NCBI GenBank assembly: GCA_013375395.1
Contig: JABXJW010000002.1
Location: 3,733-58,586, forward strand
DNA from: Desulfobacterales bacterium
GTDB taxonomy: Bacteria; Desulfobacterota; Desulfobacteria; Desulfobacterales; C00003060
Direction: 5' to 3'
DNA: 54,854 nt
Part shown: positions 1 to 52,858 of the stretch, one piece after another
Position numbering within the stretch: position 1 is the first letter of the stretch
Layout of the letters: each line of letters starts with the position of its first letter
Translations under genes and position numbers: made by a program
Notes under the pieces: model-generated
Databases searched by the model: none
Seen by the model: the letters and a program-made list of their open reading frames with translations, nothing else
Told to the model about the DNA's origin: nothing

Positions 1-941
1 GCGGTGTGCGTGCCGGATGGGCTAATTTCCCCAACGGCTATATCAGCCTCGACTACCAGACTGAGGTCATGGCCTCCGCCGGTGACCTTATTACGGATCA
101 TGTGGAATGCCTCGAGGCCAATACTCCGTATTTCTTGGCCTTGTCCGGGGCCATTCCGTTGATCGATCCGCATGTGAATACTCCCAAGGGCCGCCAGCCG
201 TTTTCCGTGGCCGGTTCTTTTGACACGGGCGACGGCGGCGGAAAGAAGGAGCGCACCATCGCGGAGGTCGTTGAATGGCTCGCTACCAGTGCAAATTGTC
301 TCGGCGTGGTAGCCTTCGGCACATGTGCCTCCTTTGGCGGCATCCCTGCCGCCAAGGGGAATAAAACCGCGGCGACCGGGGCGTACAATTTCCTGGTGAA
401 TTACAAGGGCCACACCGTATTGAAGGACAAGATCGTCAATTGTCCGGGCTGCGCACCGCACCCTGACTGGATGATCTACCCCGTAGCCTATTTCATTCTC
501 AACGGCGCCCTGCCGGCTCTGGATACGACACAGGTTCTCAATCGGGTATGGTATGGAAACAACCAGGTGTTCAGCAGGAATGTCCAAAAGAACACCGCGC
601 GTGCCATATACACGGGAGACAAAGGCTATGAGGTCTTTTGTGAGGCTGGGGCATGTGCAAAATATTCACAGACGAACCTTTGTACAGACCTGGGCGCTGG
701 TCTGGGCAACGGGGATGGCACAAACCAAAAAGAATGGTGTACCCGGCCGGAGGGGTGCAACGGCTTTATGGCCTCTCCGGACTGTCCGACGCGCAGATGG
801 AACAACTTTGACGATAACACCGTCAACCAGTGGTGTGTAGGCGCCCTGCCCAGGGGTTCCAATTACGTGTGTCAAGGCTGCGCGGAGCCGGATTTTCCGG
901 ACGGTCGATCACCGTTTTTCAGTTCTGATAAGAATGGCTAA
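1..941 (+). CDS. [NiFe] hydrogenase small subunit, periplasmic type (5' end cut by the window edge)
   Basis: The frame is open to the window start; the track ORF 6..941 begins at an internal GTG. Motifs ISLDYQTEVMASAG, AFGTCASFGGIPAAKG, CPGCAPHPDW and CQGCAEPDFPDG match the Fe-S ligand regions of group-1 small subunits. There is no C-terminal TM anchor. The large subunit starts 18 nt downstream. Confidence 0.9.
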   Translation, partial: GVRAGWANFPNGYISLDYQTEVMASAGDLITDHVECLEANTPYFLALSGAIPLIDPHVNTPKGRQPFSVAGSFDTGDGGGKKERTIAEVVEWLATSANCLGVVAFGTCASFGGIPAAKGNKTAATGAYNFLVNYKGHTVLKDKIVNCPGCAPHPDWMIYPVAYFILNGALPALDTTQVLNRVWYGNNQVFSRNVQKNTARAIYTGDKGYEVFCEAGACAKYSQTNLCTDLGAGLGNGDGTNQKEWCTRPEGCNGFMASPDCPTRRWNNFDDNTVNQWCVGALPRGSNYVCQGCAEPDFPDGRSPFFSSDKNG

Positions 942-958
942 TAAGGAGGTGAATATAG

Positions 959-2941
959 ATGCCACAAATTAATATAGATCCGGTAAACCGTATTGAAGGA
1001 CATCAAAAATGGGAGGTAGACGTTAATACCGACGGCAGGAGCCATGATGCCAAGGTCAAGGGCATGATGTTCCGCGGCTTTGAGATCATCTTGCAGGGCC
1101 GTGATCCCAGGGACGCCATCATTATCTGCGGCCGCATCTGAGGCGTCTGACTAGTCAGCCATGGATTGGCGGCCGCCAAGAACGTTGGATTTGCTTATGG
1201 TTTCAATGTACACAACGAGGATGCTAGCATTCATCCCAGGCCAGACACGGATGACATCCCCGAAGCGGGGCACCTGACGCGGGATGTGATTTATGGGTCT
1301 AATTATGTAGCGTCCCATATCGTCCACCTCTATCATCTTGCCGCGCTCGATTTTATCGATCCTGCTGCGGCGGGTTTGGACAAGGCCCCGTTTTGTCCCT
1401 CGCATGCTCCTGATCAGTCAGACCCGTTGTACCCGTATTATTATCGGATTCCGACGGCTATGGCGGGCAGCGGTTCAGCTGGGACTTATAATCTGAATGT
1501 ATATCTTGTTGCTCAGTATGTGATCGCCCTCAAGATCCGGCGGATGTGTAATCAGATCACGGCCATCTGGGGCGGCCGGGCGCCTTTTGTCCAGGGCCTC
1601 ACCCCTGGCGGCGCAGCCACTTCGGTGAGCCAGGATGCGATTGATAAAACGCGGGAGATTCTCTATGAAGGCGGTGTGGGAGGGACTCCTGCGAGTCCTG
1701 CCCCCGGCACCATTTTGTCCTTCGTCGGCCAGCCGACGGATTTTGCACTTTGGGTTGCTGACGGTGCTGATCCCGCCAAGCTGCCGATCATAGGCGACGT
1801 TAGTCCAGGGGCCTTTGGCGGCACCATGCTCTTTGATACAGTGGCAGTGGCCATGTTTTATCCGGAATACTTCTGGTACGGCAATGCCTACGAGCGTTTC
1901 CTCGCCTATGGGGTCTTTGAAAAAGGGGATCTCTCCAACCCGGACGAACGGCTCTTGAGGCGTGGACGCAAGATAGGCGGGGATAAGTATCCGGGAACGC
2001 CAAATCCTCTGGCGGTCCTTCAGCAGAATGTATTCGAAAACGTGGCCAACAGCTATTACACGTATCAAGGGACCCAGTGGAAGCAGCCGTTGAGTGGGGA
2101 GACGACCCCAGAGCCGCGAAAGACCGGCGCTTATTCGTGGGTCAAGTCTCCGCGCTACAAGGATTTGTCGGATCCCGACTGGGGAACGCCGGTCGGCAAA
2201 CCCGGTGCGGTGCCATATGAGGTAGGCCCCTTGGCCCGGATGCAGGTCAATGGCGACTACTATGCCGGGTTCCTGTATGACTTTTACACGGCTAATAGCG
2301 TCCCGCCCGTAATCCCGGTGGGCCCCTTTGCGGGTGTAACATTCCCCCGGTACGGTGATCCTGCGCCGAACCTGAACAACATCTTCGGCACAGGAGGTAT
2401 GAACATACCCCTGTCCGGCACACTCACCTGGCCGGACCTGAACGCCGATCCGTACAATCTCACCTACGTGGGGGGTTCGGCCTTGGATCGTTATGCCGCC
2501 AGACAGCTTGAGTGCTGGAAGGTCGCAAATGCTATGGTCGGATGGCTGAACAGGCTCGAAGCCAAGGTGGGCCAGGCGACGAGCAAGACACGAACGCCGC
2601 CTGGGGACAGGTTTTATAGAAAATCCTATGGGTGGACCGAGGCCCCGAGGGGCGCCCTTGGCCACTGGATGAAGCTCGGCACGAACGGAAAGATCGAAAA
2701 GTACCAGTGCGTGGTCCCTTCGACCTGGAACGCCTCTCCGAAGGATGGACTTGGTATTATAGGGCCGGCTGAAAAGGCCATGACGCAGATGTTCGTCCCG
2801 GACATCAATCATCCGTTGGAGGTGTTGCGTGTAGGACATTCGTGGGATTTCTGCACTGCCTGCGCTGTCCACGTTGTGAAACGGAAAAAAGGCGGAAAAA
2901 GAGAAGAGAAGGTTGTGAATATAGATCCCACCCACCTCTAA
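959..2941 (+). CDS. [NiFe] hydrogenase large subunit, single 660-codon frame containing two in-frame TGA codons (candidate selenocysteines)
   Basis: An AAGGAGGTG RBS precedes ATG 959. Track ORFs 959..1141 and 1166..2941 share a frame and are separated only by TGA GGC GTC TGA CTA GTC AGC CAT GGA. The joined product reads GRDPRDAIIICGRI-[TGA]-GV-[TGA]-LVSHGLAAAK, which is the L1 motif RxCGxCxxxH. The N-terminus has PVNRIEGH. The C-terminus has DFCTACAVH followed by a 22-aa tail typical of protease-processed large subunits. Confidence 0.85.
1139..1150 (+). other. Two in-frame TGA codons (1139-1141 and 1148-1150) at the positions of both L1 Ni-ligand cysteines; candidate Sec recoding sites
   Basis: Direct reading of the frame gives atc TGA ggc gtc TGA cta gtc agc cat. 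The flanking residues align residue for residue with RI-C-GV-C-xxx-H of [NiFe] hydrogenases. Confidence 0.7.
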
Positions 2942-2944
2942 GAT

Positions 2945-2972
2945 ATGAGGGGGGGAACGCCCCCCCTCATAC
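2945..2972 (+). promoter_or_regulatory. Perfect 12-bp stem-loop between the large subunit and the maturation protease (mRNA stabiliser or partial terminator candidate)
   Basis: tatgaggggggg-aacg-ccccccctcata: a 12-bp perfect stem including a G7/C7 run, with a 4-nt loop. It starts 4 nt after the TAA at 2939-2941. No clear T-run follows. Confidence 0.5.
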
Positions 2973-2985
2973 ATCCCTTCTTCCT

Positions 2986-3468
2986 ATGTCAGCGCCAGCC
3001 CCAACAGAGAGGAAACCGATCCTCATTCTCGGTGTGGGAAACATCCTTTTGAAAGACGAAGGGATTGGTGTGCATATAGCGGAACGCCTTCAGGCCGTGG
3101 ACCTGCCGGACGAGGTGGAAGTACTCGAAGGCGGAGTTCTGGGAGTGGATCTTTTGGAGCATATGGAGCACAGAGAAAAGGTCATCATCATTGATGCGGT
3201 CCAGGGGGACATGGGGCCGGGCACGATTTACCGGTTGACCAGAAAAGAGATTGAAATGGGAGAGAACAGGTGTCTTTCCTCTCTCCACGAGATCGACCTG
3301 CCCTATGTCCTTAATGTAGGGGATTTCATGGGGCACTACATAGACCCTGTCATCATCGGGGTGGAACCCAAGGATTTGAGCGTGGGCCTCGATCTTTCCC
3401 CTGAGATCGAGGCCCTGATCCCCAAGGTGGTGGATCTCGTGATGAAAGAAATTGGTCAAATGAATTAA
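2986..3468 (+). CDS. Hydrogenase maturation endopeptidase (HyaD/HybD/HoxM family)
   Basis: Start taken at ATG 2986 (MSAPAPTERKPILILGVGN...); the track ORF from 2842 overlaps the large subunit. Motifs ILGVGNILLKDEGIGVH, IIIDAV and LHEIDL are typical of the Ni-dependent C-terminal protease. It lies immediately downstream of the large subunit. Confidence 0.85.
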   Translation: MSAPAPTERKPILILGVGNILLKDEGIGVHIAERLQAVDLPDEVEVLEGGVLGVDLLEHMEHREKVIIIDAVQGDMGPGTIYRLTRKEIEMGENRCLSSLHEIDLPYVLNVGDFMGHYIDPVIIGVEPKDLSVGLDLSPEIEALIPKVVDLVMKEIGQMN

Positions 3469-3549: not shown

Positions 3550-3627
3550 AAGAAACTAATTGCGGTTCAAGATATCTTTACTAAAACTAATGACAACTGA
3601 CAGATTTGATTGGAGGTTAGGCAACTT

Positions 3628-5181
3628 ATGAAGGTTCTATCATCAGCCAGACTTCTTTTGTGCGTGACTGTGTTCCTCTTGTTTTTTGGCGGCGGCTGTG
3701 AGGAAAAATCAGAATTAAAAGATCGCGGCAAAACGGGCGATGGGGATAAGAAGATCGCAGCGAAAGTGGGCGATGCGGAGATTACAGGGGCAGAGCTTGA
3801 TGCCGCCATGGACAAGATACCTGAAAGAAGCCGAAAAAGATATCGCCAAAGGGTCCTCAATCATCTGATAGAAGCCAAGGTCTTTTCCGGGGAGGCGAGA
3901 AGGGCTGGGCTGGACAGGGATCCGAAAATCGAGGAGGCTTTGGATAAGGCCGCCAACGAAATACTGGCGCGATATTTTGTCAAGAAATATGTTGATCCAC
4001 AGGCATTACCTTCAGAAGAGGAGGTCAAGAAATACTATCTGGAACACACGGATCAGTTTGTTGTCCCCGAAGGGGTGTTGGTCCGGCACATCGTGGTCAA
4101 GAAAAAGGAACAGGCTGATGCGGTGTTAAAGGCCGTGAAAGGGGGTGCATCTTTCGAGGAGATCTCCAAGAGAAAATCGCCTCTCCGTTCACGGAAAAAA
4201 GGAGGACGGCTTTGGCTATATAAGGGAAGGATGGCGCCGGAACTGGAGAAAGTGGCCTTTGACCTTGAAACCGGAAAACTGAGTGACGTCATAGAAACAA
4301 AGAAGGGTTACCAGATCATAAAGGTTCTCGATAAAAGCGATAAAAGGCAGATAGGTCTTGAAGAGGCAAAGACACCGATACGCCTTAAATTATCACAGGA
4401 GAGAAAAAGGGGGCTTATCCATCAGTACTATGAACGGGCAAAGGTAGACAAAGAGCCCGGACAGGGTGTGCTTGTCAAGGTAGAGGATGAGGCCCTCACC
4501 GAAGAAGCCCTTGCCACTATTCTGGCCAAAGTTCCTGAAAAAGAAAAAGAAAAGGTCAAGCAGAGTTGGATTCGTTATTTTATAGAAACGAAGGTTTTTT
4601 CCAAGGAGGCAAAAAAGGTTGGTCTCGAAACCGACCCGCAGGTAGCCGATGAACTTAAGAGAAGCAAAGATGAGATCCTGGCCAAAGCCTTTCGGCAAAA
4701 ATTTGTGGTGGATAAGTGTAAAGTAAGCGACGAGGAAGTGGGCGACTATTACCAGGCCCACCTCGAGAAGTTCAAAATACCCTTGAGGGTTAGGATAAGG
4801 TCTATCGTAGTCACAAAGAGGGAAGAGGCGGAAGAGATCTTAAAAGAACTCAAAGGCGGCGCTGCTTTTAGTCATCTGGCTATCAAGAGATCGGTTCACC
4901 CTTCGGCCCCAAGGGGAGGGGAGCTAGGGTGGTTTGGTGAAGGAGAAAAGGACCCGACTCTGGAAAAGGCCGCCTTTGCCATCGAGAAAGGGCAGATCAG
5001 CGACATCATCAAGACGGAGAGTGGTTGCGAGATCATCAAAGTGATGGATAAGAAAGGTGGCGGGACCAGATCCCTTGAAGAGGTCCATTCATCGATCAAG
5101 ACGATCCTGACAAGAAAAAAAATTCAGGCCGAAAAAGAACGTTATTTCCAAAAAGCAGGAGTCAAGGTACTGGGGGCGTAG
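3628..5181 (+). CDS. Peptidyl-prolyl cis-trans isomerase, SurA/PrsA-like, with two parvulin domains and a signal peptide
   Basis: ATG 3628 lies 11 nt after GGAGG (3612-3616). The N-terminus MKVLSSARLLLCVTVFLLFFGGGC is signal-like. Two parvulin-type segments are present: VRHIVVKKKEQADAVLKAVKGGASFEEISKRKS and IRSIVVTKREEAEEILKELKGGAAFSHLAIKRS...GGELGWFGEGE. Confidence 0.8.
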   Translation: MKVLSSARLLLCVTVFLLFFGGGCEEKSELKDRGKTGDGDKKIAAKVGDAEITGAELDAAMDKIPERSRKRYRQRVLNHLIEAKVFSGEARRAGLDRDPKIEEALDKAANEILARYFVKKYVDPQALPSEEEVKKYYLEHTDQFVVPEGVLVRHIVVKKKEQADAVLKAVKGGASFEEISKRKSPLRSRKKGGRLWLYKGRMAPELEKVAFDLETGKLSDVIETKKGYQIIKVLDKSDKRQIGLEEAKTPIRLKLSQERKRGLIHQYYERAKVDKEPGQGVLVKVEDEALTEEALATILAKVPEKEKEKVKQSWIRYFIETKVFSKEAKKVGLETDPQVADELKRSKDEILAKAFRQKFVVDKCKVSDEEVGDYYQAHLEKFKIPLRVRIRSIVVTKREEAEEILKELKGGAAFSHLAIKRSVHPSAPRGGELGWFGEGEKDPTLEKAAFAIEKGQISDIIKTESGCEIIKVMDKKGGGTRSLEEVHSSIKTILTRKKIQAEKERYFQKAGVKVLGA

Positions 5182-20028: not shown

Positions 20029-21699
20029 ATGGCGAAAACAGGGGGAAATGGAAAAGTCGTAGTCATTGGGCTGGATGGAGGAAGCTTTGCGGTCATTGAT
20101 CCGTTGATCAAAGAAGGAAAACTGCCCAACATAGCAAGACTTATTGAGGAAGGTGTCAGAGGTGACTTAGAGTCCACTGTGCCACCGGTAACCGGCCCTG
20201 CCTGGGCGTCATTCATGACCGGCAAATCGCCCGGAGCGCATAGCCTTTTTGATTTCGTCAAACGTGTTCCCAATGAATCCGCAAGACAGATCGTCAATTA
20301 CAACCATATCAAATCAAAGACCTTGTGGTCAATTCTGAGTGAACAGGGCAAGAAAATAGGCATCATTAACGTGCCCATTACATACCCCCCTTCAGAGGTG
20401 AGCGGTTTCCTGATCTCGGGGATGCTGACACCAAGCATACAATCGCAATATACCTATCCCGCTTCTTTGTCCCAAGAACTGGAGGCTAAATTTGGCCAAT
20501 ATGTACTTGATATATGGTGGCAGCACTATGGGCCCAAGCGTATCAAACGATTCTTGCAAGATCTTATGGATTGCACCAATAAGAGGGGGAAAATTGCCCT
20601 CTACCTGATGGAGAGCCGCGAGTGGGACCTTTTCATGACTGTTTTCATAGGGATGGATCGTATACAACATGCGTTATGGAATTTTCTCTTCCCACTGGAC
20701 CTCCGGAACTTATCTCCAAAAGAGGAGGAAATTAGAGACCTGATAATAGAGTATTATCAACTCGTGGATAGTATCATAGGAAAGTTGGTTGCGGCCGTTG
20801 ATGGAAACGGGAATCTTGTTATCATGTCGGACCACGGATTTGGCCCTTTGAACGGGAAGTTGTATATAAACAAATGGCTGGAAGATCTTGGTCTTCTAAC
20901 CTATGACCGCACAAAAATAAACAGGTATCGCACAACACACAGACTGGCTTCTTTGTTGAGGTCCATCGTGAGCAATATGGATTTACTGCGTCTCAGAAAG
21001 ATGCTTATGATCGCCAAGGCACGCGAGACAAGGACTACTTGCGGCTTTCTTGACTGCATAGATTGGTCAAGGACGGTGGCATACGCCGCATCTAACACTG
21101 AACAGGGCATATATCTCAATCTCGAAGGCAGGGAACCTTATGGCATTGTTAAACCAGGCGGCGATTGGGAAGAAACCAGGGACTTCATCATAGAGAAGCT
21201 GAGGGAACTTAAGCACCCAGAAACAAAAGAAAAACTGGCCAGTAGGATTTACAAAAGAGAAGATATCTATTCAGGTCCTTACGTGAATGATGCTCCGGAC
21301 ATAATATTTCTCCTACGGGAAGGCCAATACTTGGCAGATGTTCAACCCAGCAATTACCTGATCGAACGACCGAGCTGGAAAACAGGTACTGGAACGCATA
21401 GAATGGAGGGAGTATTCATAGGATATGGCAGAGACATAAGAAATGGGATTCATATTTCCAATGCCAGGATTATCGATGTTGCCCCTACCGTTCTCAATCT
21501 AATGAATGTACCAATCCCTGACGACATGGATGGAAGGGTTCTCACGGAAATCTTTGCTGTTCACTTCCTAAAGGACAATCCCCCCCTGTATGTTGGGCCG
21601 TCGGACCAGGTTGATTCGGACAAAGAGGCAGACGGGCTCTATTCTGACAGTGAATCAGCACATCTCAAGGAACAACTTAAAGGCCTGGGATATTTGTAG
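20029..21699 (+). CDS. Alkaline-phosphatase-superfamily protein, type I phosphodiesterase/nucleotide pyrophosphatase family (paralogue 1)
   Basis: VVVIGLDGGSF, PPVTGPAWASFMTGKSPGAH, DRIQHALW, IMSDHGFG, GTHRMEG and DVAPTVLNLMNVPIPDDMDGRVL. The C-terminus is LKGLGYL. No signal peptide. Confidence 0.8.
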   Translation: MAKTGGNGKVVVIGLDGGSFAVIDPLIKEGKLPNIARLIEEGVRGDLESTVPPVTGPAWASFMTGKSPGAHSLFDFVKRVPNESARQIVNYNHIKSKTLWSILSEQGKKIGIINVPITYPPSEVSGFLISGMLTPSIQSQYTYPASLSQELEAKFGQYVLDIWWQHYGPKRIKRFLQDLMDCTNKRGKIALYLMESREWDLFMTVFIGMDRIQHALWNFLFPLDLRNLSPKEEEIRDLIIEYYQLVDSIIGKLVAAVDGNGNLVIMSDHGFGPLNGKLYINKWLEDLGLLTYDRTKINRYRTTHRLASLLRSIVSNMDLLRLRKMLMIAKARETRTTCGFLDCIDWSRTVAYAASNTEQGIYLNLEGREPYGIVKPGGDWEETRDFIIEKLRELKHPETKEKLASRIYKREDIYSGPYVNDAPDIIFLLREGQYLADVQPSNYLIERPSWKTGTGTHRMEGVFIGYGRDIRNGIHISNARIIDVAPTVLNLMNVPIPDDMDGRVLTEIFAVHFLKDNPPLYVGPSDQVDSDKEADGLYSDSESAHLKEQLKGLGYL

Positions 21700-21986: not shown

Positions 21987-23537
21987 GTGTTTCCGAGAAC
22001 TTTGGACTCTCAAGATACTCAGATGCATTCTCCAATCCATGCTACACAAGGTGACTTATCGAAGTTAGCAAAAGGGGCAGGCGCAGTTTTTTTCGGAACA
22101 ATCTTCGGTAGCATTGTCACCTACGTCTACAATGTTTATATTGCCAGAACATTAGGATCTGAACTCTACGGCTCGTATTCATTAGGGCTGTATGTTTTCA
22201 ATATCGCAGCTGTCGTCTCTCTTATGGGGCTGCATACGGCGATTTTGAGATATGTCGCCCTTTACAACGGGGCGAGTAAGCACGAAAAAACGAAAGGCGC
22301 CATTATCTCAGGACTTTCCTTGGCCTTGCCAATGAGCGTTGCAACAGCAGCTGCATTGTATACCCTCTCTGATTTCCTGGCTGTCAGGCTATTCCATGAA
22401 CTCCTGTTGGGACGTGTTTTGAGAATGTTTGCTATTGGTATCCCTTTTATAAATGTATCTACTCTGCTTATGTTCGCAACACAAGGTTTTCAAATAGTGA
22501 AATATCGGGTTTATATTAGGAACGCCTTCGAACCTGTTGGCAAGCTGCTTTTCGCCGCCATATTTCTATTTTTCGGCTGGCAATTAGATGGCGTCTTACG
22601 AGCCTTCGTCCTGACACTTATTATCACATCTGTTCTTTTCTCGCGTTCGTTGTTGAAGATCTCTCCCCAGCTTCGCGAGGGCATAAGACCTGAATATGTC
22701 TTCAAGGAACTCATCATATTTTCCCTTCCTTTGATACCTGTGAGCATTTTGCAGGCCGTTACTCAGAGGATGGAACCCCTGATACTGGGAAACCTTTGCT
22801 CGCCGTATGAGGTGGGATTGTACTCTGCTGCTTACCAAACGGCAATGTTAATCACCATAGTGCTCATGTCATTAAACATCATTTTTGCCCCGATGATTTC
22901 CGATTTGCACAACAAGGGGGAACTCCCGAAGCTGGAAAGCCTTTTTAGGATCGTCACCAGGTGGGCATTTACACTGTGCATTCCTTTAGTTGTGATGACG
23001 ATCTTTTTTGCTCGAGAAATCTTGCAAATTTTTGGCAGTCAATTCGTGGCGGCAGCCGGCTGCCTGGTCATCTTGGCTCTGGGGCAACTTGGCCATTCGG
23101 CAACGGGCCCAGTGGCATTCATGCTGATGATGTCCGGAAGGACCATGATTATACTGGTAAACGCGTCACTAGCCCTTTTATTGAAACTCATTCTTAATAT
23201 CTTACTAATACCCAAATTTGGCTTAGTGGGCGCGGCGACGGCGGCGGCGATTTCTATTATTATCCTCAATCTCGCCATGGTAGTCCAAGTCTTCTACGTT
23301 CTAAGGATGCACCCTTTTGTACCCAGCTTTTTCAAACCCATATTCTGTGGCATAGCTGCCATTCTAATTGTATACGCCGTTAAGTTTCTCGCAAATATTG
23401 ACGGTCTCGTTGGACTTTTCATTTTGGGGCTGACCTTTATGGCTTTTTATGCGATACTAATCACCTTATACGGTATGAACAGTGAAGACAGAATGGTCTT
23501 TTCGGCGATCAAACGCCGAGCCCTAGGAGTTAGATGA
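21987..23537 (+). CDS. Polysaccharide flippase (Wzx / MOP-superfamily polysaccharide biosynthesis protein)
   Basis: About 516 aa, highly hydrophobic with many TM segments. GTG 21987 lies about 11 nt after AAGGGGA (alternative start ATG 22023). The stop overlaps the next gene (ATGA). Confidence 0.75.
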   Translation: MFPRTLDSQDTQMHSPIHATQGDLSKLAKGAGAVFFGTIFGSIVTYVYNVYIARTLGSELYGSYSLGLYVFNIAAVVSLMGLHTAILRYVALYNGASKHEKTKGAIISGLSLALPMSVATAAALYTLSDFLAVRLFHELLLGRVLRMFAIGIPFINVSTLLMFATQGFQIVKYRVYIRNAFEPVGKLLFAAIFLFFGWQLDGVLRAFVLTLIITSVLFSRSLLKISPQLREGIRPEYVFKELIIFSLPLIPVSILQAVTQRMEPLILGNLCSPYEVGLYSAAYQTAMLITIVLMSLNIIFAPMISDLHNKGELPKLESLFRIVTRWAFTLCIPLVVMTIFFAREILQIFGSQFVAAAGCLVILALGQLGHSATGPVAFMLMMSGRTMIILVNASLALLLKLILNILLIPKFGLVGAATAAAISIIILNLAMVVQVFYVLRMHPFVPSFFKPIFCGIAAILIVYAVKFLANIDGLVGLFILGLTFMAFYAILITLYGMNSEDRMVFSAIKRRALGVR

Positions 23538-25156
23538 TGAGTGATGCAAAGAATAAGGTTTTTGTCATAGGCCTTGATGGGGCAACCTGGGATGTTCTAA
23601 CGCCCCTGATGCACGAAGGAAAAATGCCGTTTCTCAGACAGATGACTGAAAGAGCAGCAACTAGCAATCTTGAATCCACTATTCCTCCAATGACCGGATG
23701 TGCATGGACATCCTTTCAAACGGGCTTAACTCCTGGCAATCACGGCATTTTTCATTTCGTTAAATTCGACAGGGCCTCGAAGGAACTCAGATTTGTCAAC
23801 TCATCGAGCCTGAAATCGAAAACCATCTGGGAGATTGCAAGTGAATTCGATAAGAAGGTGATTTCTATCAACGTTCCAATGACCTATCCTCCACTGAGAG
23901 TAAACGGAATGATGATTTCAGGTATCCCCATCCCCAGCCAAAATGCCGGCATTGCTTATCCGAATGGCCTGTATCAGGAAATTCTGGATCATGTAAAGGA
24001 ATACAAAGCTGTAATCCACCAACACGTCTACTTCTCCAGAGGGCTGGACTATTTTGTCGATCAGCTCATCCAAACTATCGAAAATCGAAAAAAGACTGCC
24101 TTGTACCTGTTGAAGAACTACGAATGGGACCTGTTCATGGTCCACTTCCAGTCCGTGGACGTCCTCCAACATGCCCTGTGGAATATCATAATAAATAGCC
24201 CCGGTACGTCAGAACGAGAAAAGGCCAAGGTTTACACGTTTTACGAACGCCTCGACGAAATAATCGCCAGACTGTTTGAAGAAATAGACGATACAACCAC
24301 GGCCGTCATTATGTCTGACCATGGATTTGGCGGTGACAAGAAAGTCTTCTACATAAACACTTGGCTAATGAATGAGGGCCTGCTGGTGCCCCACAAGAGG
24401 TTAAAGGCATCAACATTTTCCTCACAGGTTGCTAATTTCTTGCGGAAGGTAGATAAGCGTCGATTACGTTCGATATTTTTTAAGACTCACAAGAGAAGAG
24501 CATTTATTCTTAACGAGGTTAACAACATAATAGATTGGTCAGTCACTAGCGCACTGGCAGTTACAGTGGGGCCTTACGCATTGCTGTTTCTGAACTCTGG
24601 CGCAGAGGGACAAGATTCCGAAGCGCAACTCAGGGAAAGGATCATCAAAAAACTTGGCAAAATAACTGACCCGTCTAGCGGCAATCAGATAATGAGTGAG
24701 GTGCTCTTTAAGGAACAAATTTATCAAGGGGCATCTGTCGGTGAATCCCCGGATATGGTTTGCGTCGCCAAAAACGGTTACTCCTTCGATTTCCACTTAG
24801 ACACATCGAGAAGAGCTGTGCTCCAGGACCTCGATTCCGTGTATCAACCCCCTGGTTCCCATAGAACCGACGGAATACTCCTGTTGGTCGGAAATTCTGT
24901 TAGCAAAAACTCTACTCTGATTAGCCCCAGGATTTTTGACCTAGCACCTACTATTCTCTTCACATTGGGAGTGCCAATTCCCAGGAGTATGGAAGGCAGG
25001 GTTCTCACGGAGGCCTTTACGCCGGAATTCCTGAAAACGAGTAAGCCAATGATTAGAGATATTAACATCGACCGCAGTGAATCATCTGGCTATGATTTTT
25101 CGAGTGAAGAAGAAATGCAAATTCACAGGAGCTTGAAGGGCTTGGGATACTTTTAG
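23534..25156 (+). CDS. Alkaline-phosphatase-superfamily phosphodiesterase-family protein (paralogue 2)
   Basis: VFVIGLDGATW, PPMTGCAWTSFQTGLTPGNHGIF, DVLQHALW, IMSDHGFG, GSHRTDG and DLAPTILFTLGVPIPRSMEGRVL. The C-terminus is LKGLGYF. Confidence 0.8.
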   Translation: MMSDAKNKVFVIGLDGATWDVLTPLMHEGKMPFLRQMTERAATSNLESTIPPMTGCAWTSFQTGLTPGNHGIFHFVKFDRASKELRFVNSSSLKSKTIWEIASEFDKKVISINVPMTYPPLRVNGMMISGIPIPSQNAGIAYPNGLYQEILDHVKEYKAVIHQHVYFSRGLDYFVDQLIQTIENRKKTALYLLKNYEWDLFMVHFQSVDVLQHALWNIIINSPGTSEREKAKVYTFYERLDEIIARLFEEIDDTTTAVIMSDHGFGGDKKVFYINTWLMNEGLLVPHKRLKASTFSSQVANFLRKVDKRRLRSIFFKTHKRRAFILNEVNNIIDWSVTSALAVTVGPYALLFLNSGAEGQDSEAQLRERIIKKLGKITDPSSGNQIMSEVLFKEQIYQGASVGESPDMVCVAKNGYSFDFHLDTSRRAVLQDLDSVYQPPGSHRTDGILLLVGNSVSKNSTLISPRIFDLAPTILFTLGVPIPRSMEGRVLTEAFTPEFLKTSKPMIRDINIDRSESSGYDFSSEEEMQIHRSLKGLGYF

Positions 25157-33778: not shown

Positions 33779-33820
33779 CGAGATTCATTGTGGTTTTGGC
33801 ATTCTGGAGAACGAATAGAG

Positions 33821-35506
33821 GTGGTTAATTCCTTTAAGACAAACGAGACAAGGGTCGTTGTAATCGGCTTAGACGGCGCTACGTTTGATGTTATCGAACC
33901 TTTGATCAAGAGAGGCAAGCTCCCAAATTTGGCGAGGATTATGCAGAATGGCGTATACGGAGAACTAAAATCGACCATCCATCCCATTACCCCTCAGGCC
34001 TGGACCACGTTTCTAAGCGGTAAGAAGGCCGGCAAGCACGGAATCTTCGATTTTATCTGCAGGAAACAAGATTCATATGAAATACAATTTGTTAATGCCA
34101 GTAAAAGAAAGGCAGAGAGTATATTCTCAATTCTAAGTAGAGCCGACAAGAGAGTAGGTGCAATAGGTGTTCCCTTTACCTTTCCGCCGGAAAAAGTGAA
34201 CGGATTTATGCTCTCAGGAATGGACGCCCCGGCCGAAGACGGCAGGGCTGTCTATCCCGATTCGATCTATGACGAAATAAAGAAGGAATTTGGGCACTAT
34301 TACATACATTTGGCCTCTCCGGTAGGGCGAAGAGTTGATCAAGACAAATTTTGGAAGGACATTGTAAGGGAGGACGAAAACAGAACGCTGATCAGCAAAT
34401 ATCTAATGGCAAAGTACCCTTGTGATCTATTCATTACGGTATACAACAACACCGATCGAGTTGCACACCAACATCTGGACCAAACTGTGTACGACATGAT
34501 TCGAAATGACCAGGATGTTAACCATGAAGATTTTCTGGTCAGAACCTATGAGAATGCCGATGCTCAGGTCGGTTCACTCCTTTCGGACACGGACGGGGAC
34601 ACCTCAGTAATTATCATGTCGGACCATGGTTCCGGCCCCATACGGAGGGTTTTTTTTCTCAACAGGTGGCTTGAGGAAAATGGGTTTCTGACATACAAGG
34701 AGAAAAAACAAGACCCCTTTCTAAGAGGTATGCATCTGGCTCGATTTATTGCAAAGCGTTTTTTGCCAAGGTGGGCAAAGAATCTTATCGAAAGCAGAAT
34801 GGGATGCGTCAGGGATAAAGTGGAATCCATGCTATCCTTCTCAGACATTGAATGGGAGCAAACAAGGGCTTATGGCTTTGGGATGTATGGAAACATATAC
34901 ATTAATCTCAAAGGGCGGGAGCCAAAAGGTATTGTGGCACAGGGAAAGGAATATGAAGATTTACGTCATCAGATTATCGAACGGTTGAGCAGGCTGAGTG
35001 ATCCGAATACTGGCGAGAAGATCATAGAAAAGGTATACAGGCGTGAGGAATTATATCAAGGGCCTCAACTTGAAGACGCGCCGGATTTGTTGATCGGCTG
35101 GAAAGATTATGCTTATTATACTTCAGTTACATTGGGCAAGGAAAAGGGCCCGATCTTCGGACCACATATGAACATTGATTGTTCGGAATACAAACATGTG
35201 GGAACCCATCGGCTCAATGGAATCTTTATGGCTATGGGAGATATCATAAAAAAGGGGGCGGAGATCTCAGGCGCCGGGATCTGTGATGTTGCCCCGACGA
35301 TTCTTTATATGCTTGGTCAACCTATCCCGGAGGACATGGATGGGAAGGTCCTTACTGAAATATTTGATGAGAATTTTCAGAGGAGCAATTCTCCAAGGTA
35401 TGAACGACCCAGTTCCGCTGCCAATGCTAGTGAAGTTGTTTCTTATTCGGATGGAGAGAGCCGCAAGATAGCAGAGAGATTGAAAGGGTTAGGATATCTG
35501 GAGTAA
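33821..35506 (+). CDS. Alkaline-phosphatase-superfamily phosphodiesterase-family protein (paralogue 3)
   Basis: VVVIGLDGATF, HPITPQAWTTFLSGKKAGKHGIF, DRVAHQHL, IMSDHGSG, GTHRLNG and DVAPTILYMLGQPIPEDMDGKVL. The C-terminus is LKGLGYLE. GTG 33821 (11 nt after GGAG) gives an N-terminal length matching the paralogues; the track start is 33788. Confidence 0.8.
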   Translation: MVNSFKTNETRVVVIGLDGATFDVIEPLIKRGKLPNLARIMQNGVYGELKSTIHPITPQAWTTFLSGKKAGKHGIFDFICRKQDSYEIQFVNASKRKAESIFSILSRADKRVGAIGVPFTFPPEKVNGFMLSGMDAPAEDGRAVYPDSIYDEIKKEFGHYYIHLASPVGRRVDQDKFWKDIVREDENRTLISKYLMAKYPCDLFITVYNNTDRVAHQHLDQTVYDMIRNDQDVNHEDFLVRTYENADAQVGSLLSDTDGDTSVIIMSDHGSGPIRRVFFLNRWLEENGFLTYKEKKQDPFLRGMHLARFIAKRFLPRWAKNLIESRMGCVRDKVESMLSFSDIEWEQTRAYGFGMYGNIYINLKGREPKGIVAQGKEYEDLRHQIIERLSRLSDPNTGEKIIEKVYRREELYQGPQLEDAPDLLIGWKDYAYYTSVTLGKEKGPIFGPHMNIDCSEYKHVGTHRLNGIFMAMGDIIKKGAEISGAGICDVAPTILYMLGQPIPEDMDGKVLTEIFDENFQRSNSPRYERPSSAANASEVVSYSDGESRKIAERLKGLGYLE

Positions 35507-44480: not shown

Positions 44481-46250
44481 CTATGGCGCACTCGCAATAC
44501 TGAAAGTCGAGATCTTTTTGTCCGTGCTAAGCAGGGTTCCGCCCGGCGTATCAAACATGCCAATCTGAATCAAGAGCTTGGCCGGTGAATCGGGGGTGGC
44601 CTCTCCTGGAATGGTCTTATCCCAGGTTATCTCGTAAGTACCAGAAGAAACAGTACCCTGCTTGTAGAGTTTGGTTACCCAATCGGTTCCGGGCATCGAC
44701 GAGGTGTTCCCTGCCCCGGACTTTGCCACCTTAACAAAGTATGAGCCTGGGCCGACGAGCGTAAAACGCGCATGATAACGGATATTCTCATTGGGAGCAA
44801 ATACCGTCTTTGTTACGTTACTTAGATTGCTGGTCCACACAGCGTCAAGATACACCCCAAGAGCACCTGCTGGGCTTCGATACCACTTTAGCTCTTCTGT
44901 CGGATGGCAACCAGAGCATACGTGGTTGACCGAAGCATCCGGCATCACTCCACATATAAGGCCCCCATAACGACTTTCCCCAAGGACCGCTGTCTGGGTA
45001 ACCCCATCGGCCTTGTACCAGCGGAAATCTAAGGCAGGCACTTTGTCGGTCGTGCCTGGGGTGCTGATAAGCTCCCCATGGCGGATCATCGCGCCGTTAG
45101 GCGGACCATGAACGTTGTGACAATTTATGCACGTCATGGCGGAATCCCGACAAGTGCCCGTGTTGCACCCAACACCATCAAAGTCGGAGTCCGAAGCAAA
45201 GAGGGCGGGCCACAAATTCAGGTGCATCTCATGAAACTGCATTCCTTTCCCGTCATCCCTGAAGTTGCTTGTGGAGCCGGTTATATCTGTATATACGTGG
45301 CAATTGGTACAGAGCCTGAAGGCTTCCGGATGGATCTCGCCATTGCGTGGCACAGCCATGTTTTCGCTGAGCCTATAGCCAGACCTGTAGTTGTCCGCTG
45401 CGGCCGAATAGGTTCTGGCGTCGCCATCTGTGTGCATAACCGTAAGATCGTGGCAATCCTTGCAAAGAACAGCGTGGTGTCCGTGGCCGGATACGTTGTA
45501 GCCATAGCCTACGTTATCTCCCATCACATTCGGGGCCTCCACGCCTTTCACATTGGACATCCCGCCATCATGGCACGTGGCACACCAATTCTCTTTTCCT
45601 GATTTCAAGTCGGAACCATCGGCTTCGTAGATTCCCTGCTCCCAATTGGGCTTAGCTCCGACTATTAGATCGTCCACCCCGTCAAAGGCGGACCCATCTT
45701 TGCTGTGGCAGGGATTGCAAACATCGGTGTTGGCCAGATCTTTGCCATCGGCAAACAGCGAGTAAGTGCTGGAGCTGTGACACTCCGTGCATGCAGTGAT
45801 CTCAGGGCCTTTTGGATCCGACAGATGGGTCTCGTGGGATTGAGGGCCTACATAGGTTGGGGCAAACATGGTGACCTGAAAATGCTTGTGACACTCAGTG
45901 CAATATTCGCCCGCATAATGGGAGTGGTCCCCCCCGCTGTTATTCCGATGGTAGGCGGTCTGTGTATGACAGACCTCACACGCCCCGTCGTACGTGCTGT
46001 CGCCGTCGGCCAGAGAGTTTGGGCCGGTCAAGTTCAGATATACAGGGGAAACCGAGCCGGGACCAGGAATCAGTACAATCTCTTCGGCTACCCACTTGAG
46101 GTTTGTATTGTCATCTGCAAAACGATGACAATCGAAACACCAATAGCCGTTATGTGCCCCAACTTCCTGGGCGTGAATATCAAGGATGCCTGTGAAACCC
46201 ACACCGGAAACCAGTAAAAGCGCTAAGAGCAATAGTGGACGTTTTTTCAT
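44481..46250 (-). CDS. Decahaem c-type cytochrome with a non-haem C-terminal domain, secreted
   Basis: ATG 46250 follows GGGGGGAG. Signal peptide MKKRPLLLLALLLVSGVGF. Ten CxxCH motifs are present: CFDCH, CEVCH, CTECH x2, CNPCH, CATCH, CKDCH, CTNCH, CINCH and CSGCH. The last ~120 aa have no haem motif. Confidence 0.85.
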   Translation of the reverse strand: MKKRPLLLLALLLVSGVGFTGILDIHAQEVGAHNGYWCFDCHRFADDNTNLKWVAEEIVLIPGPGSVSPVYLNLTGPNSLADGDSTYDGACEVCHTQTAYHRNNSGGDHSHYAGEYCTECHKHFQVTMFAPTYVGPQSHETHLSDPKGPEITACTECHSSSTYSLFADGKDLANTDVCNPCHSKDGSAFDGVDDLIVGAKPNWEQGIYEADGSDLKSGKENWCATCHDGGMSNVKGVEAPNVMGDNVGYGYNVSGHGHHAVLCKDCHDLTVMHTDGDARTYSAAADNYRSGYRLSENMAVPRNGEIHPEAFRLCTNCHVYTDITGSTSNFRDDGKGMQFHEMHLNLWPALFASDSDFDGVGCNTGTCRDSAMTCINCHNVHGPPNGAMIRHGELISTPGTTDKVPALDFRWYKADGVTQTAVLGESRYGGLICGVMPDASVNHVCSGCHPTEELKWYRSPAGALGVYLDAVWTSNLSNVTKTVFAPNENIRYHARFTLVGPGSYFVKVAKSGAGNTSSMPGTDWVTKLYKQGTVSSGTYEITWDKTIPGEATPDSPAKLLIQIGMFDTPGGTLLSTDKKISTFSIASAP

Positions 46251-46479
46251 TGTTCTCCCCCCTTCACACGCTTCGGACGTGCGTCCGAGCGGGCAAAAAA
46301 GAATAATGGACAAACCATATTTGGCGTAAACATTCGGGTGACTTATCCTGCCTATTTCAGGGCAACCTTCTCAACCCCGTTCCGGGGCGTGAGAACGGTA
46401 TAATTTCCAGCTTTTATCGGCCAATACAGGAGCATGTTTTTGTATCGGGGCTCGTGTCCTACATCCTTCATGGTCTGTG

Positions 46480-47169: not shown

Positions 47170-47289
47170 CCTATTCCATCGAACCTCGTGTCTTATTCGA
47201 AATCACTGCCAACGCAATAATAGCCGCCATCAGTGCAGCCTGGACCAACCACGGGGCGGGCAGATCAAACTTATCAATTGTTGGTCATT

Positions 47290-47310
47290 CTTTACACTTT
47301 ACACTTTACG
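47290..47310. repeat. Three tandem heptamers CTTTACA/CTTTACA/CTTTACG
   Basis: Direct reading. They lie about 120 nt upstream of the minus-strand start at 47169. On the minus strand they give repeated TAAAGT (-10-like) hexamers after TTGCAC/TTGCAG. Confidence 0.6.
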
Positions 47311-48658: not shown

Positions 48659-48782
48659 ATTTTCTCCTCAAAAATACTGAAGTGTTGGAACCAGGACGAC
48701 TCACCCATCATGTGCGTAAAGCTTCGGTTCGTGTCCAATCTTCCAATTGCAATTGGGGCGAAGCCCCCACAGGTTCGGTTTT

Positions 48783-49585: not shown

Positions 49586-52500
49586 TTATGGTACCACCTT
49601 TTCTATGTTAACCAAAAATGCCTTGGATTCTTGAATCCTTGTATTGGCATCACCCACAAAAGGCGTCAGCACATTTCCGCTGTCACCCGGATTGGGGGTC
49701 GCATATCCCCAGTGCCAAATAACGCCTACCTGATGAACCGTCTGACCGTTCAGTTGAAACGGCTTGAAGCGCTTGGTAACGCATGCCTTTACGCTGATAT
49801 CACCTCTGGCGCAGCTTACCTTTACCGGGTCTCCATTATTGATCCCCTTGAGAGCCGCAAGCTCTTCGCTCATTTCGACAAATGGTTCGGGCTGAACTTG
49901 GTTGCACCATGGCAGGTTTCTCGTCATGGAGCCCGTATGCCAATGTTCGGTCAGCCTGTAAGTAGTAGCAGCAATTGGAAACTCGGGCGTAGGCGCCAGA
50001 CCATCCGTAAACACGGCGCCATCATAAATATGAACGATCGGGTTTACCTGGTAATTGCCCATGGGGTTTGCCACCACGCTTTCTATGGGCTCATAGTGCG
50101 AAGGAAATGGGCCTTCTGCACGGCCGGGGCCGAACAGGTGCGCATGGCCTTCCTTGTGCATGATAAAGGGGTACACGCCCCCTGGTGCCGCGCCATGGTC
50201 GGGTACATCGCCCTTCCATCCGCCATTATACCTCATAACGTACTTGCTCGGAGCCAGCGGAGCGCCTGCATTACCATTGGCCCCGCCGTCGCTCTGATAT
50301 GTGGAGGCCCGGTTGTAGATGATCCTCCTGTTTAGGGGCCAACACCACGACCAGTAAGAATGAAGGCCTATGTTCGGGTATGAAGGATCGGCCAAAGGCC
50401 CTCCATTGGGAGCATCTGGGCAATGGCGCCTTGCCATCCTGTTTCCAACAGTTGCGGCAAACATACCCGGATTTGCTGTTTCAAAACCATCAGTGCTGCT
50501 GGGGTCAACGAATTGGGCACAATAGAGCCAATTGCCGGAGCAGGTTGTACCGGTCGTCGTCAAAAGGGTGAACTTGGGAACCAGCCCGCTCGGGTTGACG
50601 GTTGTGTCAATGGTGCCATCTGGATTCAGATAATAACCATTGACTTCCATGGCGGCCTTTTCCGCTCTCGTCTGTGCATCGTCCGCAGAGTTGTAACTGA
50701 AATAAGGCCAGTTAAGGTTTGTAATTGGCTGCGGGTATATTCCCGGGCTGGCAGCTTCCTGGGCCTGAATTTCCAGACCAAGCTCTGTTATGATCACAAG
50801 GTCATCCTTTGCGACCCCCGGCGGCTCGGCGGCTTTCCAGTGCCACTGGGCCCACCTGCCGCTATTGCTCCTGGAGCCTGCCCTTTCATAGGCAACGGCG
50901 GCCGGCAGCAAATAGACTGTAGTGTTAATAGCCGCCATCTGTGTAGTTGTAAGGGGGTTCCCATCCACGTCAAACTCCCAGAAGCGAGCCGTCTCCGACT
51001 TGAAGGGGTCTATGACCACCATCCACTGAAGGTTTCTCAGGGCGGCTCTCACATGCTTGCTGTCGGGGTCGCTGACGGCCGGGTTTTCCCCGTCACAGAT
51101 GAACCCGTTGAGTTCACTATGATACATGGCATCAAAGATCGAGAGCATGCTGTAGTTCTTGCCACTCACCTTCTTCGCCAGTCGGTTGTACCCAGTAACA
51201 AGATCCTCGGTGGGCCACCACGCCTTGATCAGGCTTGCCATATACTTTTCCCCGTGCTGCCACCAGTAGGAACTGGCGGGGTCCGTACCAGGTGTTCCAT
51301 TCACCGTGTAGTCATGAGCCGGCTCGATGATCTTTGTTGAGTCAGCCCAGTTGGCTATGAATGTAGCCATGTCCACGTCCATTCCGGTGGGTTGTTTGAT
51401 GTATCCTGGCAGGATATGCTCCAGTATGCACATGTCGGTGGAGCCCTGGACGTTGTCCTGGCCCCTCAGGGCATTGATGCCGCCGCCGGCCACACCGATG
51501 TTTCCCAGCAAGAGCTGAAGAATGGCATAGCTTCTCACATTCTGGGTTCCGACGGTATGCTGTGTCGTACCCATGGCGTACATGATGGTGGCCGACTTGT
51601 CATCAGGATAGGTCGCGCAATAGGCCTGGCAGATCTGCTCATACACAACGGGATCTGATCCGGTAATTTCGCACACCTGATTGATGGTATATGGAGCAAA
51701 CTGCTTTTTCAGAAGCTGGAACGCGCAGTCCGGGTCATTGAGGTCTGCGGCCAGAACGGGAACAAAAGGAGGACCTGCGGTCCCCTGGTAGGCCCAGGTA
51801 CTCTTGTTATACTTGCAGTCAACATCGTGACCAAAAAGGGTACCTCCACCGGTTTTGTCCAATCCGGAAAATACACCAAGATCACCCTCAGCGCATGTCT
51901 GAAAACCAGTGTTGATTTTAAAAAGCGCGTTGGTGCATTCCTTGACGTACTTTTCGTTATACAGATTATTTTGAAGCGCATAATTGATGATCCCGCCGAT
52001 AAAGGCAATATCCGTTCCTGAGCGCATGTGCGCAAACAGATGGGCCTTTGACGAACTCCTGGTAAACCTGGGGTCCACACTGATAAGGGTTCCACCTTTG
52101 TCGATGGCCTTTTGAACCCACTTGAAGGACATGGGGTGGTTTTCGGCGGCATTGCTTCCGATAATCATGACCACATCGGCGTTTCTTATGTCAATCCAAT
52201 GCTGGGTCATTGCACCTCTTCCGAACGACTCTGCCAGAGCCGCAACAGTGGCAGAGTGTCAGACCCGGGCGCAGTGCTCAAGGTACACGATACCCAGGGC
52301 CCTCATCAGCTTTGTAAACAGATAACACTCCTCGTTGGTGTCCTTTGCCGTTCCCAGAGCAGCAATGGTCTCAAGTCTATTGACATATGTAGACTCATCT
52401 TCACCCACTCCCGCGTCTCCCATTTTTTGTAGGTTGGCCTCCCTTTCAGCTTTTATCAGTCCGGCAATTTCAGTCATTGCCGTATTCCAGTCTATCGGAG

Positions 52501-52858
52501 TCCAGGTTGAACTACCGGGCGAACGCCTCAATGGTTGCTGTACTCTCTCTGGATTTACCTGGCCGTCCACTGTGCAGAGTTGCACAGAGGCTGCACCCTT
52601 GCTGCATAGTGCGCCCTGGTTTATGGGATGGTCCGGGTCGCCTTGCACGTAGGTTATGAGACCGCCGCTATCGCTCCCAACCAAGACACCGCATCCGCAT
52701 CCGCAATAAGGACAGATGCTGGCAACCACAGTATCCCATTCAGGCGGATTTGCCGTTGCGTAAGCCTTTATGGGCATCAGGTCAAAGACGCTGCCCAGCA
52801 TCAGGCCCGCAGTGGCCGCACCAGAGATCTTTAAAAAATCTCTTCTAGTTACATCCAT
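49586..52858 (-). CDS. fdhA: Periplasmic formate dehydrogenase catalytic subunit (molybdo/tungstopterin), selenocysteine-containing, Tat-exported
   Basis: Track ORFs 52259..52858 and 49586..52210 share a frame and are joined by ...EHCARV-[TGA 52261-52259]-HSATVAALAESFGRGAMTQ..., the canonical FdhA/FdnG Sec context. Tat signal MDVTRRDFLKISGAATAG. N-terminal 4Fe-4S motif CPYCGCGCG. Confidence 0.92.
52228..52257 (-). promoter_or_regulatory. Bacterial SECIS-like hairpin immediately 3' of the fdhA UGA
   Basis: The minus-strand RNA is UGA C ACUCUGCCA-CUGUUGCGGCUC-UGGCAGAGU. It forms a 9-bp perfect stem starting 2 nt after the UGA, with a G-containing apical region. Confidence 0.75.

Follow-up and report, generated by a model that had tools for sequence, protein, structure and literature searches.

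Two in-frame UGA codons at the N-terminal nickel-ligand positions of a Group 1 [NiFe] hydrogenase: a candidate U-x-x-U active site with a conserved downstream element

The DNA analysed here (the window; 54,854 nt of contig JABXJW010000002.1 of the Desulfobacterales bacterium assembly GCA_013375395.1) encodes a [NiFe] hydrogenase whose large-subunit gene contains two in-frame TGA codons at the nickel-ligand positions of its N-terminal (L1) motif. A first-pass annotation of this DNA had put the gene forward as a candidate for a U-x-x-U active site with selenocysteine (Sec, U) at both positions; that both L1 codons are translated UGAs stood up to analysis, and Sec at both of them is probable. The hydrogenase region comprises the following features:

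3..941, forward strand: [NiFe] hydrogenase small subunit, C-terminal 312 residues; open frame with the N-terminus beyond the window edge, stop TAA at 939-941
943..949, forward strand: Shine-Dalgarno sequence AAGGAGG, 9 nt 5' of the large-subunit ATG at 959, read from the sequence
959..2941, forward strand: [NiFe] hydrogenase large subunit, 660 codons including two putatively recoded UGAs, stop TAA at 2939-2941
1139..1141, forward strand: UGA1, first ligand of L1, matching the first Cys of RICGVC
1148..1150, forward strand: UGA2, second ligand of L1, matching the second Cys of RICGVC
1151..1188, forward strand: synonymous-site-suppressed stretch, near-invariant in nucleotides among orthologues; candidate recoding element
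1154..1173, forward strand: putative hairpin B, GUC(A)GCCA-UGGAU-UGGCGGC, 7 bp with a bulged A; RNAalifold consensus of the clade
1166..1179, forward strand: putative hairpin C, palindrome UUGGC-GGCC-GCCAA, 5 bp; shares the 3' arm region of hairpin B
2846..2872, forward strand: C-terminal ligand (L2) motif DFCTACAVH, both ligands plain TGC codons
2873-2938, forward strand: C-terminal extension of 22 residues, directly 3' of the L2 motif
2986..3468, forward strand: HycI-type large-subunit maturation endopeptidase, intact

Pfam matches were obtained for the small subunit (Oxidored_q6, 7.5e-14; NiFe_hyd_SSU_C, 2e-08), the large subunit (NiFeSe_Hases, PF00374, 1.7e-87) and the endopeptidase (HycI, 3.6e-24), the last of which occupies the equivalent position at every orthologous locus. 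The earlier claim that the rest of the operon is intact thus holds for the large subunit and the HycI protease and, in the case of the small subunit, for the part inside the window. Orthologous operons open with a multihaem cytochrome c gene (5-9 CxxCH motifs) and the small-subunit gene, and full-length orthologous small subunits start with the twin-arginine signal ITRRQFLQ, the window copy being cut at its N-terminus. As orthologous operons carry both a multihaem cytochrome c and a twin-arginine small subunit, their gene content points to a periplasmic H2-cycling module feeding electrons to c-type cytochromes, as in sulfate reducers.

Translation of 959..2941 confirmed a frame that is open save for TGA at 1139-1141 and TGA at 1148-1150, 9 nt apart, the L1 region reading ...RDPRDAIIICGRI-[TGA]-GV-[TGA]-LVSHG.... 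In a phmmer search against the PDB, the top match was the [NiFeSe] hydrogenase large subunit of Desulfomicrobium baculatum (4kl8_L, 1.3e-68; 1cc1_L, 2.1e-68), and the best solved relatives overall were this enzyme (1CC1/4KL8) and Hys of Desulfovibrio vulgaris Hildenborough (2WPN/5JSH), with E values of 1e-68 to 1e-61. The two stops fall on the two Cys of R-I-C-G-V-C in the D. baculatum enzyme, which bears out the proposed alignment with both L1 cysteines; R-I-[TGA]-G-V-[TGA]-L-V-S-H matches RICGVCPTAH of 1CC1 column by column, with L1 in register, which fixes the ligand positions. In solved homologues, Ni is bound terminally by the first L1 Cys, and the second bridges Ni and Fe (PMC8020662). 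The large subunit also retains NRIEGHQ and EAPRGALGHW; RIEGH holds the proton-gate Glu and PRGALGHW the canopy Arg (PMC8020662). The plain Cys codons reported earlier for DFCTACAVH were confirmed as TGC, the first of them, at 2852-2854, standing where the classical DPUxxCxxH motif has Sec. Overall, the large subunit is ~160 residues longer than classical [NiFeSe] enzymes.

A database search with the joined protein yielded 33 close homologues with ~46-66% identity, the window's own product aside. All 33 lack the N-terminus, and those not truncated by their contig begin with [M/L]AAAKNVG, just past the second TGA. DNA was compared for 13 contigs of the clade, originating in independent samples (JGI, ENA, Logan and NCBI). 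TGA-GG(C/G)-GTC-TGA is kept in 10 further distinct clade sequences with 57-66% protein identity, and the double-TGA orthologues include L001, L002 (= L003), L004, L005, L166, L167, L169, L172 and L173. The first position is TGA in 11/11 distinct clade contigs with a stop codon there, including a UxxC form (L168), and the second is TGA in every UxxU-type orthologue and TGC in L168, a sister sequence. Neither L1 stop is TAA or TAG in any orthologue, and the codons 5' of the TGAs vary synonymously (ATT/ATC, TGC/TGT, CGC/CGT). One sequence, L086 (1040-1200 of Ga0180435_10002109), which is near-identical to L005, has AGA (Arg) at the first position (RIRGV-[TGA]-LVSH); this is the clade's only departure there and represents either a sequencing error or an inactive allele. 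It was also the only orthologue recovered by alignment-based scans of genome and metagenome collections, which used generic motifs and returned mostly hydrogenases of ~30% identity that served as the control set. A scan of genome contigs with the single protein gave no match.

Automatic gene calling breaks the large subunit into pieces of 60 and 591 aa in every orthologue, so double-TGA genes are consistently annotated as split or truncated and hydrogenase surveys undercount them. This splitting, together with the AGA codon of L086, which would be inactivating if real, is what speaks for a pseudogene, a sequencing or assembly error, or two separate polypeptides of 60 and ~590 residues. Such explanations are very improbable. 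The two TGAs are shared with 10 other distinct assemblies of independent origin (57-66% protein identity) and are never TAA or TAG, which bears out the argument that chance nonsense mutations are unlikely; in the comparison with orthologues that the first-pass annotation had called for, the UxxU clade thus has TGA in place of Cys codons. Furthermore, both gene halves stay open, and their conserved residues still vary at synonymous sites. The TTG at 1166, used as a start by open reading frame (ORF) finders for the 591-aa product, is not preceded by a comparable Shine-Dalgarno sequence, and no promoter-like site was found in 900-1400. A split product would be inactive, because the 60 N-terminal codons hold the proton-gate Glu of RIEGH, and it would lack both L1 ligands. 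Both UGAs are thus almost certainly translated.

The way in which UGA is otherwise used in this organism can be judged from the window itself, in which 10/38 genes end in TGA and only three in-frame TGAs occur, namely the two L1 codons and one codon of a formate dehydrogenase gene:

49586..52858, reverse strand: fdhA, formate dehydrogenase alpha subunit exported by the twin-arginine translocation (Tat) system, one in-frame TGA at 52259-52261

The fdhA product contains molybdopterin domains, and its TGA is located at the canonical Sec site CARV-[TGA]-HS (context CARV-[TGA]-HSATVAALAESFGRG) and is followed by a long hairpin that starts at the UGA and has the apical loop UGCG, in agreement with the earlier description of a canonical TGA with a selenocysteine insertion sequence (SECIS) element. 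Because 10/38 genes end in TGA and fdhA has a canonical Sec codon, the gene content of the window indicates that UGA is a normal stop codon in this organism and that Sec decoding is in use. A variant genetic code with UGA as a sense codon for Trp or Gly could explain the in-frame TGAs, which are its only support, but is of negligible probability: it conflicts with the genes ending in TGA, all three in-frame TGAs occupy Cys/Sec ligand positions, and neither Trp nor Gly can ligate Ni.

The first-pass annotation had called for a check for a conserved structure downstream of the UGAs. Synonymous variation was quantified in a codon alignment of nine clade members, using 12-codon sliding windows, as the proportion of sequence pairs with different codons for a shared amino acid. 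The mean fraction was 0.527, and the sliding window starting at the UGAs gave 0.089, the minimum of all 148 and thus of the gene. The sequence CTA GTC AGC CAT GGA TTG GCG GCC GCC AAG AAC GTT (1151-1186) is essentially invariant in the clade. Its first codon (1151-1153) is the sole CTA among the 660 codons of the gene, is kept in all UxxU orthologues and is CTG in L168, and it may reflect a codon-context or structural requirement.

Two overlapping hairpins can be drawn within the conserved stretch. Hairpin B (-7.9 kcal/mol) has the loop UGGAU, which begins 23 nt after the U of UGA1, and hairpin C (-5.9 kcal/mol) has the loop GGCC, which begins 23 nt after the U of UGA2. The hairpin C loop also lies 32 nt from UGA1; bSECISearch, as described by Zhang and Gladyshev in 2005, reportedly accepts a UGA-to-loop range of 16-37 nt. 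Because they overlap, the two hairpins are mutually exclusive. In masked folding, with the ribosome-occluded nucleotides withheld from pairing, the minimum free energy (MFE) structure is hairpin B with UGA1 in the A site and hairpin C with UGA2 in the A site. The nucleotide invariance spans both hairpins, and each contains a G within the first two loop positions, a feature of all SECIS elements of Sec-type hydrogenases found in the in silico survey of Takano, Inoue, Aono, Ochi and Mihara (Front Microbiol, September 2026; PMC13582414). Hairpins B and C are thus candidate structures, suggested by conservation and geometry. A third structure, hairpin A (CUAGUC/GAUUGG), which is the MFE fold of the free RNA (-16.1 kcal/mol), was rejected as the functional element: it includes UGA2, a ribosome decoding UGA1 would cover its 5' arm, and in L166 and L169 one base pair is replaced by G-A. 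In Rfam, neither the gathering nor a permissive threshold yielded a relevant family or a match of the bacterial SECIS type.

The most divergent clade member, L168 (48% identity), reads RI-[TGA]-GVCLVSH; only its first L1 codon is TGA, the second being TGC. It keeps hairpin B in a strengthened form (CAGCCAU-GGA-AUGGCUG, 7 contiguous bp with a GGA loop) and lacks hairpin C (GGCTGCTTCA). Because this sequence, with UGA1 only, keeps B without C, one hairpin per UGA is suggested. In a neighbour-joining tree, L168 is sister to the UxxU clade in 99/100 bootstraps, and the nearest Cys-type relative, L170/P0034 (RICGVCPSAH, TGC/TGC, neither hairpin), branches outside the L168/UxxU clade, as does the PIGH lineage described below; the Cys-type relatives considered were L170 and P0034-36. 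The simplest history consistent with this tree would lead from CC (L170) via UC (L168) to UU, hairpin C arriving with UGA2. The large subunit as a whole falls in a 'DFC' group that is sister to the classical [NiFeSe] clade with C-terminal Sec.

N-terminal TGA codons were also identified in other Group 1 lineages. A total of 167 large-subunit genes were scanned, a biased sample retrieved by conserved peptide motifs, and comprised, by L1/L2 type, 127 CC/CC, 26 UU/CC, 8 CU/CC, 1 UC/CC and 5 CC/UC genes, the last five being classical controls (DP-[TGA]-LGC) that form a separate clade. A lineage with RI-[TGA or Cys]-GV-[TGA]-TTVH and the L2 motif DPCMACAVH contributes 14 UU genes (L016, L018, L022, L024, L029, L030, L032, L035, L036, L038, L039, L041, L044 and L068) and 6 CU genes. 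It derives from Nitrospirota/Thermodesulfovibrionales, Anaerolineae and other metagenome-assembled genomes (MAGs), and among solved structures it is closest to the Allochromatium vinosum enzyme (3MYR, 1.7e-220). In all, the scan recovered 8 further CxxU-type Group 1 genes (at L025, L031, L033, L047, L163, L164, L036, first gene, and L023), two of them with other L1 variants (PTGH in L023, TSVH in L036). The TTVH genes have Cys-type neighbours at 68-78% identity, at times within one locus (L033). Paralogous large-subunit pairs of differing L1 type were observed at L033 (CxxU and CxxC, 78% identity), at L036 (CxxU and UxxU) and also at L064; such Sec/Cys paralogue loci recall the Sec/Cys isoenzyme pairs of methanogens.

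Downstream of the TGAs, the TTVH lineage has a hairpin of the type AGCUC-CGUGA-GAGCU, with CGUGA or CGUGC as the loop. This hairpin is common to the UxxU and CxxU forms of the lineage, at distances of 26 nt (UGA2) and 35 nt (UGA1), and its position agrees to within 3 nt with that of hairpin C in the present clade. Unconstrained RNAalifold gave a poor consensus on the TTVH alignment, and the hairpin was specified by hand and then passed the covariation controls. In these, 89% of cells were paired, 4/6 pairs changed on both sides (AU:8, UA:8 and GC:1 at one of them), 0/500 shuffles matched the score, and slid registers collapsed.

A third lineage is represented by L171 (3767-5839, P0091), which reads RH-[TGA]-GV-[TGA]-PIGH with the L2 motif DFCIACAVH, is 74% identical to the Cys-type P0035/P0036 and adjoins an 8-haem cytochrome gene; P0046 is 87% identical to P0091. 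Two candidate hairpins (CCCAU-UGGAC-AUGGG and GCGCAUC-GUC-GAUGUGC) are located downstream of its TGAs. The replacement of the near-universal L2 Pro by Phe (DFCxxCxxH) is invariant in the LVSH clade of the present enzyme, in the PIGH lineage and in L170. Because the LVSH clade, the TTVH lineage and L171 each carry the double TGA, the sampled genes indicate that N-terminal UxxU arose at least three times in Group 1. Independent gains in at least three lineages (Desulfobacterota-like, Nitrospirota and Chloroflexota MAGs) suggest that the motif brings a selective advantage.

We propose that a complete and functional large subunit is made from this gene and that it belongs to a periplasmic Group 1 [NiFe] hydrogenase, which would be exported by Tat together with the small subunit and have a multihaem cytochrome c partner as found in the orthologues. 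SelB-dependent Sec insertion at both UGAs would yield a U-x-x-U L1 motif, with Ni coordinated by two selenolates, one terminal and the other bridging Ni and Fe, and by both ordinary Cys of DFCTACAVH. We assign a probability of roughly two in three to Sec at both UGAs. Decoding would be directed by the ~40-nt element directly downstream (1151-1188). While UGA1 is decoded, the loop of hairpin B would stand 23 nt away; three translocations later, the ribosome would have unwound the 5' arm of B, and the freed 3' arm would refold as hairpin C, the loop of which would then lie 23 nt from UGA2. Tentatively, we favour such a switch in the RNA, driven by the ribosome and serving tandem Sec insertion, in which B acts before C; the reasons are the L168 variant, the change of masked fold and the identical distance (23 nt) of each loop from its UGA. 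That Sec rather than Cys is inserted at each site, and which hairpin serves which codon, is what we infer from these patterns.

Several observations weigh against this interpretation. As to the hairpins, no covariation was detected for B or C, because the region is too invariant (almost no differences within the clade) to provide such a signal, and single-sequence folds of 1139-1215 and 1120-1260 did not differ significantly from shuffles (z -0.97 and -1.39). The pairing of B with UGA1 and of C with UGA2 depends on one informative sequence, L168. Furthermore, one covarying hairpin apparently suffices for both UGAs of the TTVH lineage, so a second hairpin may be dispensable. Given this precedent, it is about equally likely that both UGAs encode Sec and that one SECIS, either C alone or B with its lower stem, serves both, the other hairpin being coincidental or having another role. 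Hairpin C, at 23 and 32 nt, would be within the bSECISearch range for both UGAs. A single SECIS for both UGAs is also what Takano et al. suggest (PMC13582414). This arrangement fits less well with L168, in which UGA1 occurs without hairpin C and with a strengthened hairpin B, with the equal distance (23 nt) of the B and C loops from UGA1 and UGA2, respectively, and with the nucleotide invariance that covers both hairpins.

As to the inserted residue, Sec and Cys are indistinguishable from sequence at each UGA, and selA, selB, selC and selD were not found in the 54.8-kb window, nor was any tRNA gene, including selC or tRNA-ReC, in the window or in 27 related loci. The UGAs might be recoded via SelB and the downstream element with Cys supplied by tRNA-ReC (SelC*) at one or both positions, in which case the mature enzyme would be an all-Cys or single-Sec [NiFe] hydrogenase whose synthesis is routed through the Sec machinery. 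We consider this unlikely, though a serious competitor. tRNA-ReC-like genes occur in ~56% of the genomes with Group 4 UXXU hydrogenases and in ~2% of other Sec-type genomes, Desulfobacterota included, and Takano et al. caution that either UGA might be decoded as Cys (PMC13582414); the conservation evidence fits Cys insertion equally well. However, fdhA in the window uses UGA at a canonical Sec site, so genuine Sec decoding is expected in the genome, and the lack of tRNA genes of any kind in the window and the 27 related loci means that nothing there speaks positively for tRNA-ReC. In addition, a stepwise fixation of UC and then UU under strong constraint is more easily explained if the inserted residue is not Cys. 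Sec at both UGAs therefore remains the reading we prefer.

Beyond the hydrogenase genes, the window contains a gene for a SurA-like protein with a double peptidyl-prolyl isomerase domain (3610-5181) 3' of the hydrogenase protease, which is syntenic in L002, L166, L168 and L173 and may be a periplasmic folding helper for the exported enzyme. On the reverse strand opposite the large-subunit gene, an ORF of 499 aa (1475..2974) is not considered a gene: it arises from the rarity of TTA/CTA/TCA codons, occupies the codon-complement frame and ranges in orthologues from 97 to 534 aa. An exopolysaccharide/glycan cluster (17596-38955) includes genes for Wzz/GNVR, Wzy, a flippase, glycosyltransferases, methyltransferases and a deacetylase, and holds three paralogous genes of the PF01663 phosphodiesterase family (20029-21699, 23534-25156 and 33788-35506); two genes of this family are also located 3' of the hydrogenase in L167. 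The formate dehydrogenase cluster, to which fdhA belongs, spans 44481-54740 on the reverse strand and includes:

44481-46313, reverse strand: 10-haem cytochrome c
47729-48658, reverse strand: FdhE
48830-49567, reverse strand: formate dehydrogenase 4Fe-4S subunit
53730-54740, reverse strand: protein of MopE-type metal-binding repeats, upstream of the formate dehydrogenase cluster genes

Group 1 periplasmic hydrogenases are structurally and electrochemically the best understood [NiFe] enzymes. To our knowledge, their natural selenium variants characterised so far contain one Sec, at the C-terminal terminal-ligand position, which is credited with fast H2 production and O2 resistance. The enzyme described here resembles these classical [NiFeSe] hydrogenases in being a heterodimeric, periplasmic Group 1 enzyme with a HycI-type protease, a C-terminal extension, a cytochrome c partner and, as predicted here, Se at the Ni site. 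Classical [NiFeSe] enzymes, in contrast, have one Sec at DPUxxC and an all-Cys L1, whereas here L2 is all-Cys and both UGAs are located in L1. If Sec is inserted at both, a natural Group 1 hydrogenase with a terminal and a bridging selenolate would present a new Ni(Se)2(S)2 coordination sphere. This sphere has so far only been approximated by engineering, one residue each time (PMC8020662). Evans et al. (2021) reported that the C76U and C79U variants of E. coli Hyd-1 are active, with 3% and 13% of native H2 oxidation and a lower K_M for H2, and described nature as replacing 'a single Cys' (PMC8020662). These variants carry Sec at the same two L1 positions of a Group 1 enzyme and indicate that the substitutions are chemically tolerated; they differ from the natural double form with its own SECIS predicted here in that each carries one substitution, introduced into an O2-tolerant enzyme by EF-Tu/UAG suppression, and no double variant was reported. 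As a soluble, Tat-exported heterodimer, the present enzyme would lend itself to purification, crystallography and protein-film electrochemistry.

How two UGAs spaced 9 nt apart are decoded is a further problem, one that the conserved overlapping hairpins open to experiment. Hairpin B is similar to the E. coli fdhF SECIS in having a single bulged base in the upper stem and GG in the apical loop, and its spacer of 12 nt after the UGA is close to that of fdhF, which is said to be 11 nt according to Huttenhofer/Bock-era work. It differs in that the bulged base is A, not U, in its loop sequence, and in the presence of a second, overlapping hairpin phased to the second UGA, an arrangement that no Rfam model covers.

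The premise of the first-pass annotation that Sec was described only as a single residue in the C-terminal motif has been partly overtaken. Takano et al. predicted N-terminal UXXU, UXXC and CXXU motifs in Group 4 in silico, among them 16 UXXU sequences with UGAs 9 nt apart, and multiple independent origins from Cys-type ancestors, a pattern shared with Group 1; their survey left out Groups 1-3 and termed UXXC and UXXU 'previously unrecognized' (PMC13582414). According to PMC13582414 and PMC8020662, Baltazar et al. (2011) noted N-terminal CXXU in a small number of sequences of Groups 1 and 3, and FrhA of the Olavius delta-1 symbiont contains a CxxU motif (PMC1976440). These CXXU sequences share a natural Sec at the bridging L1 position and contain a single Sec, whereas here both L1 positions are UGA. 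A 2026 selenoproteome review gives only UxxC for [NiFeSe] hydrogenases (PMC13188914). As regards novelty, what stands is that literature searches, with Baltazar et al. (2011) represented by the papers that cite it, found no report of UxxU or UxxC in Group 1.

The present gene has the N-terminal UXXU motif as defined by Takano et al. (2026) and falls outside Group 4. Its best solved relatives belong to Group 1, its small subunit contains NiFe_hyd_SSU_C, its orthologues have a Tat signal and a cytochrome c, and no Nuo/Hyf-like genes were found near the hydrogenase. Like the Group 4 UXXU sequences, it combines predicted N-terminal Sec codons with a candidate SECIS-like hairpin downstream, carrying G at loop position 1 or 2, and the same caveat concerning tRNA-ReC applies. 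Group 4 UXXU hydrogenases, however, are membrane-bound energy-converting complexes, whereas the present enzyme is a predicted Tat-exported Group 1 hydrogenase; furthermore, one SECIS is proposed for Group 4, whereas here two putative overlapping hairpins are conserved and a UC stage appears to have preceded UU. What is new is thus that a motif only recently predicted for Group 4 has a counterpart in Group 1, with at least three independent lineages and, in the present clade, a distinctive pair of putative overlapping hairpins.

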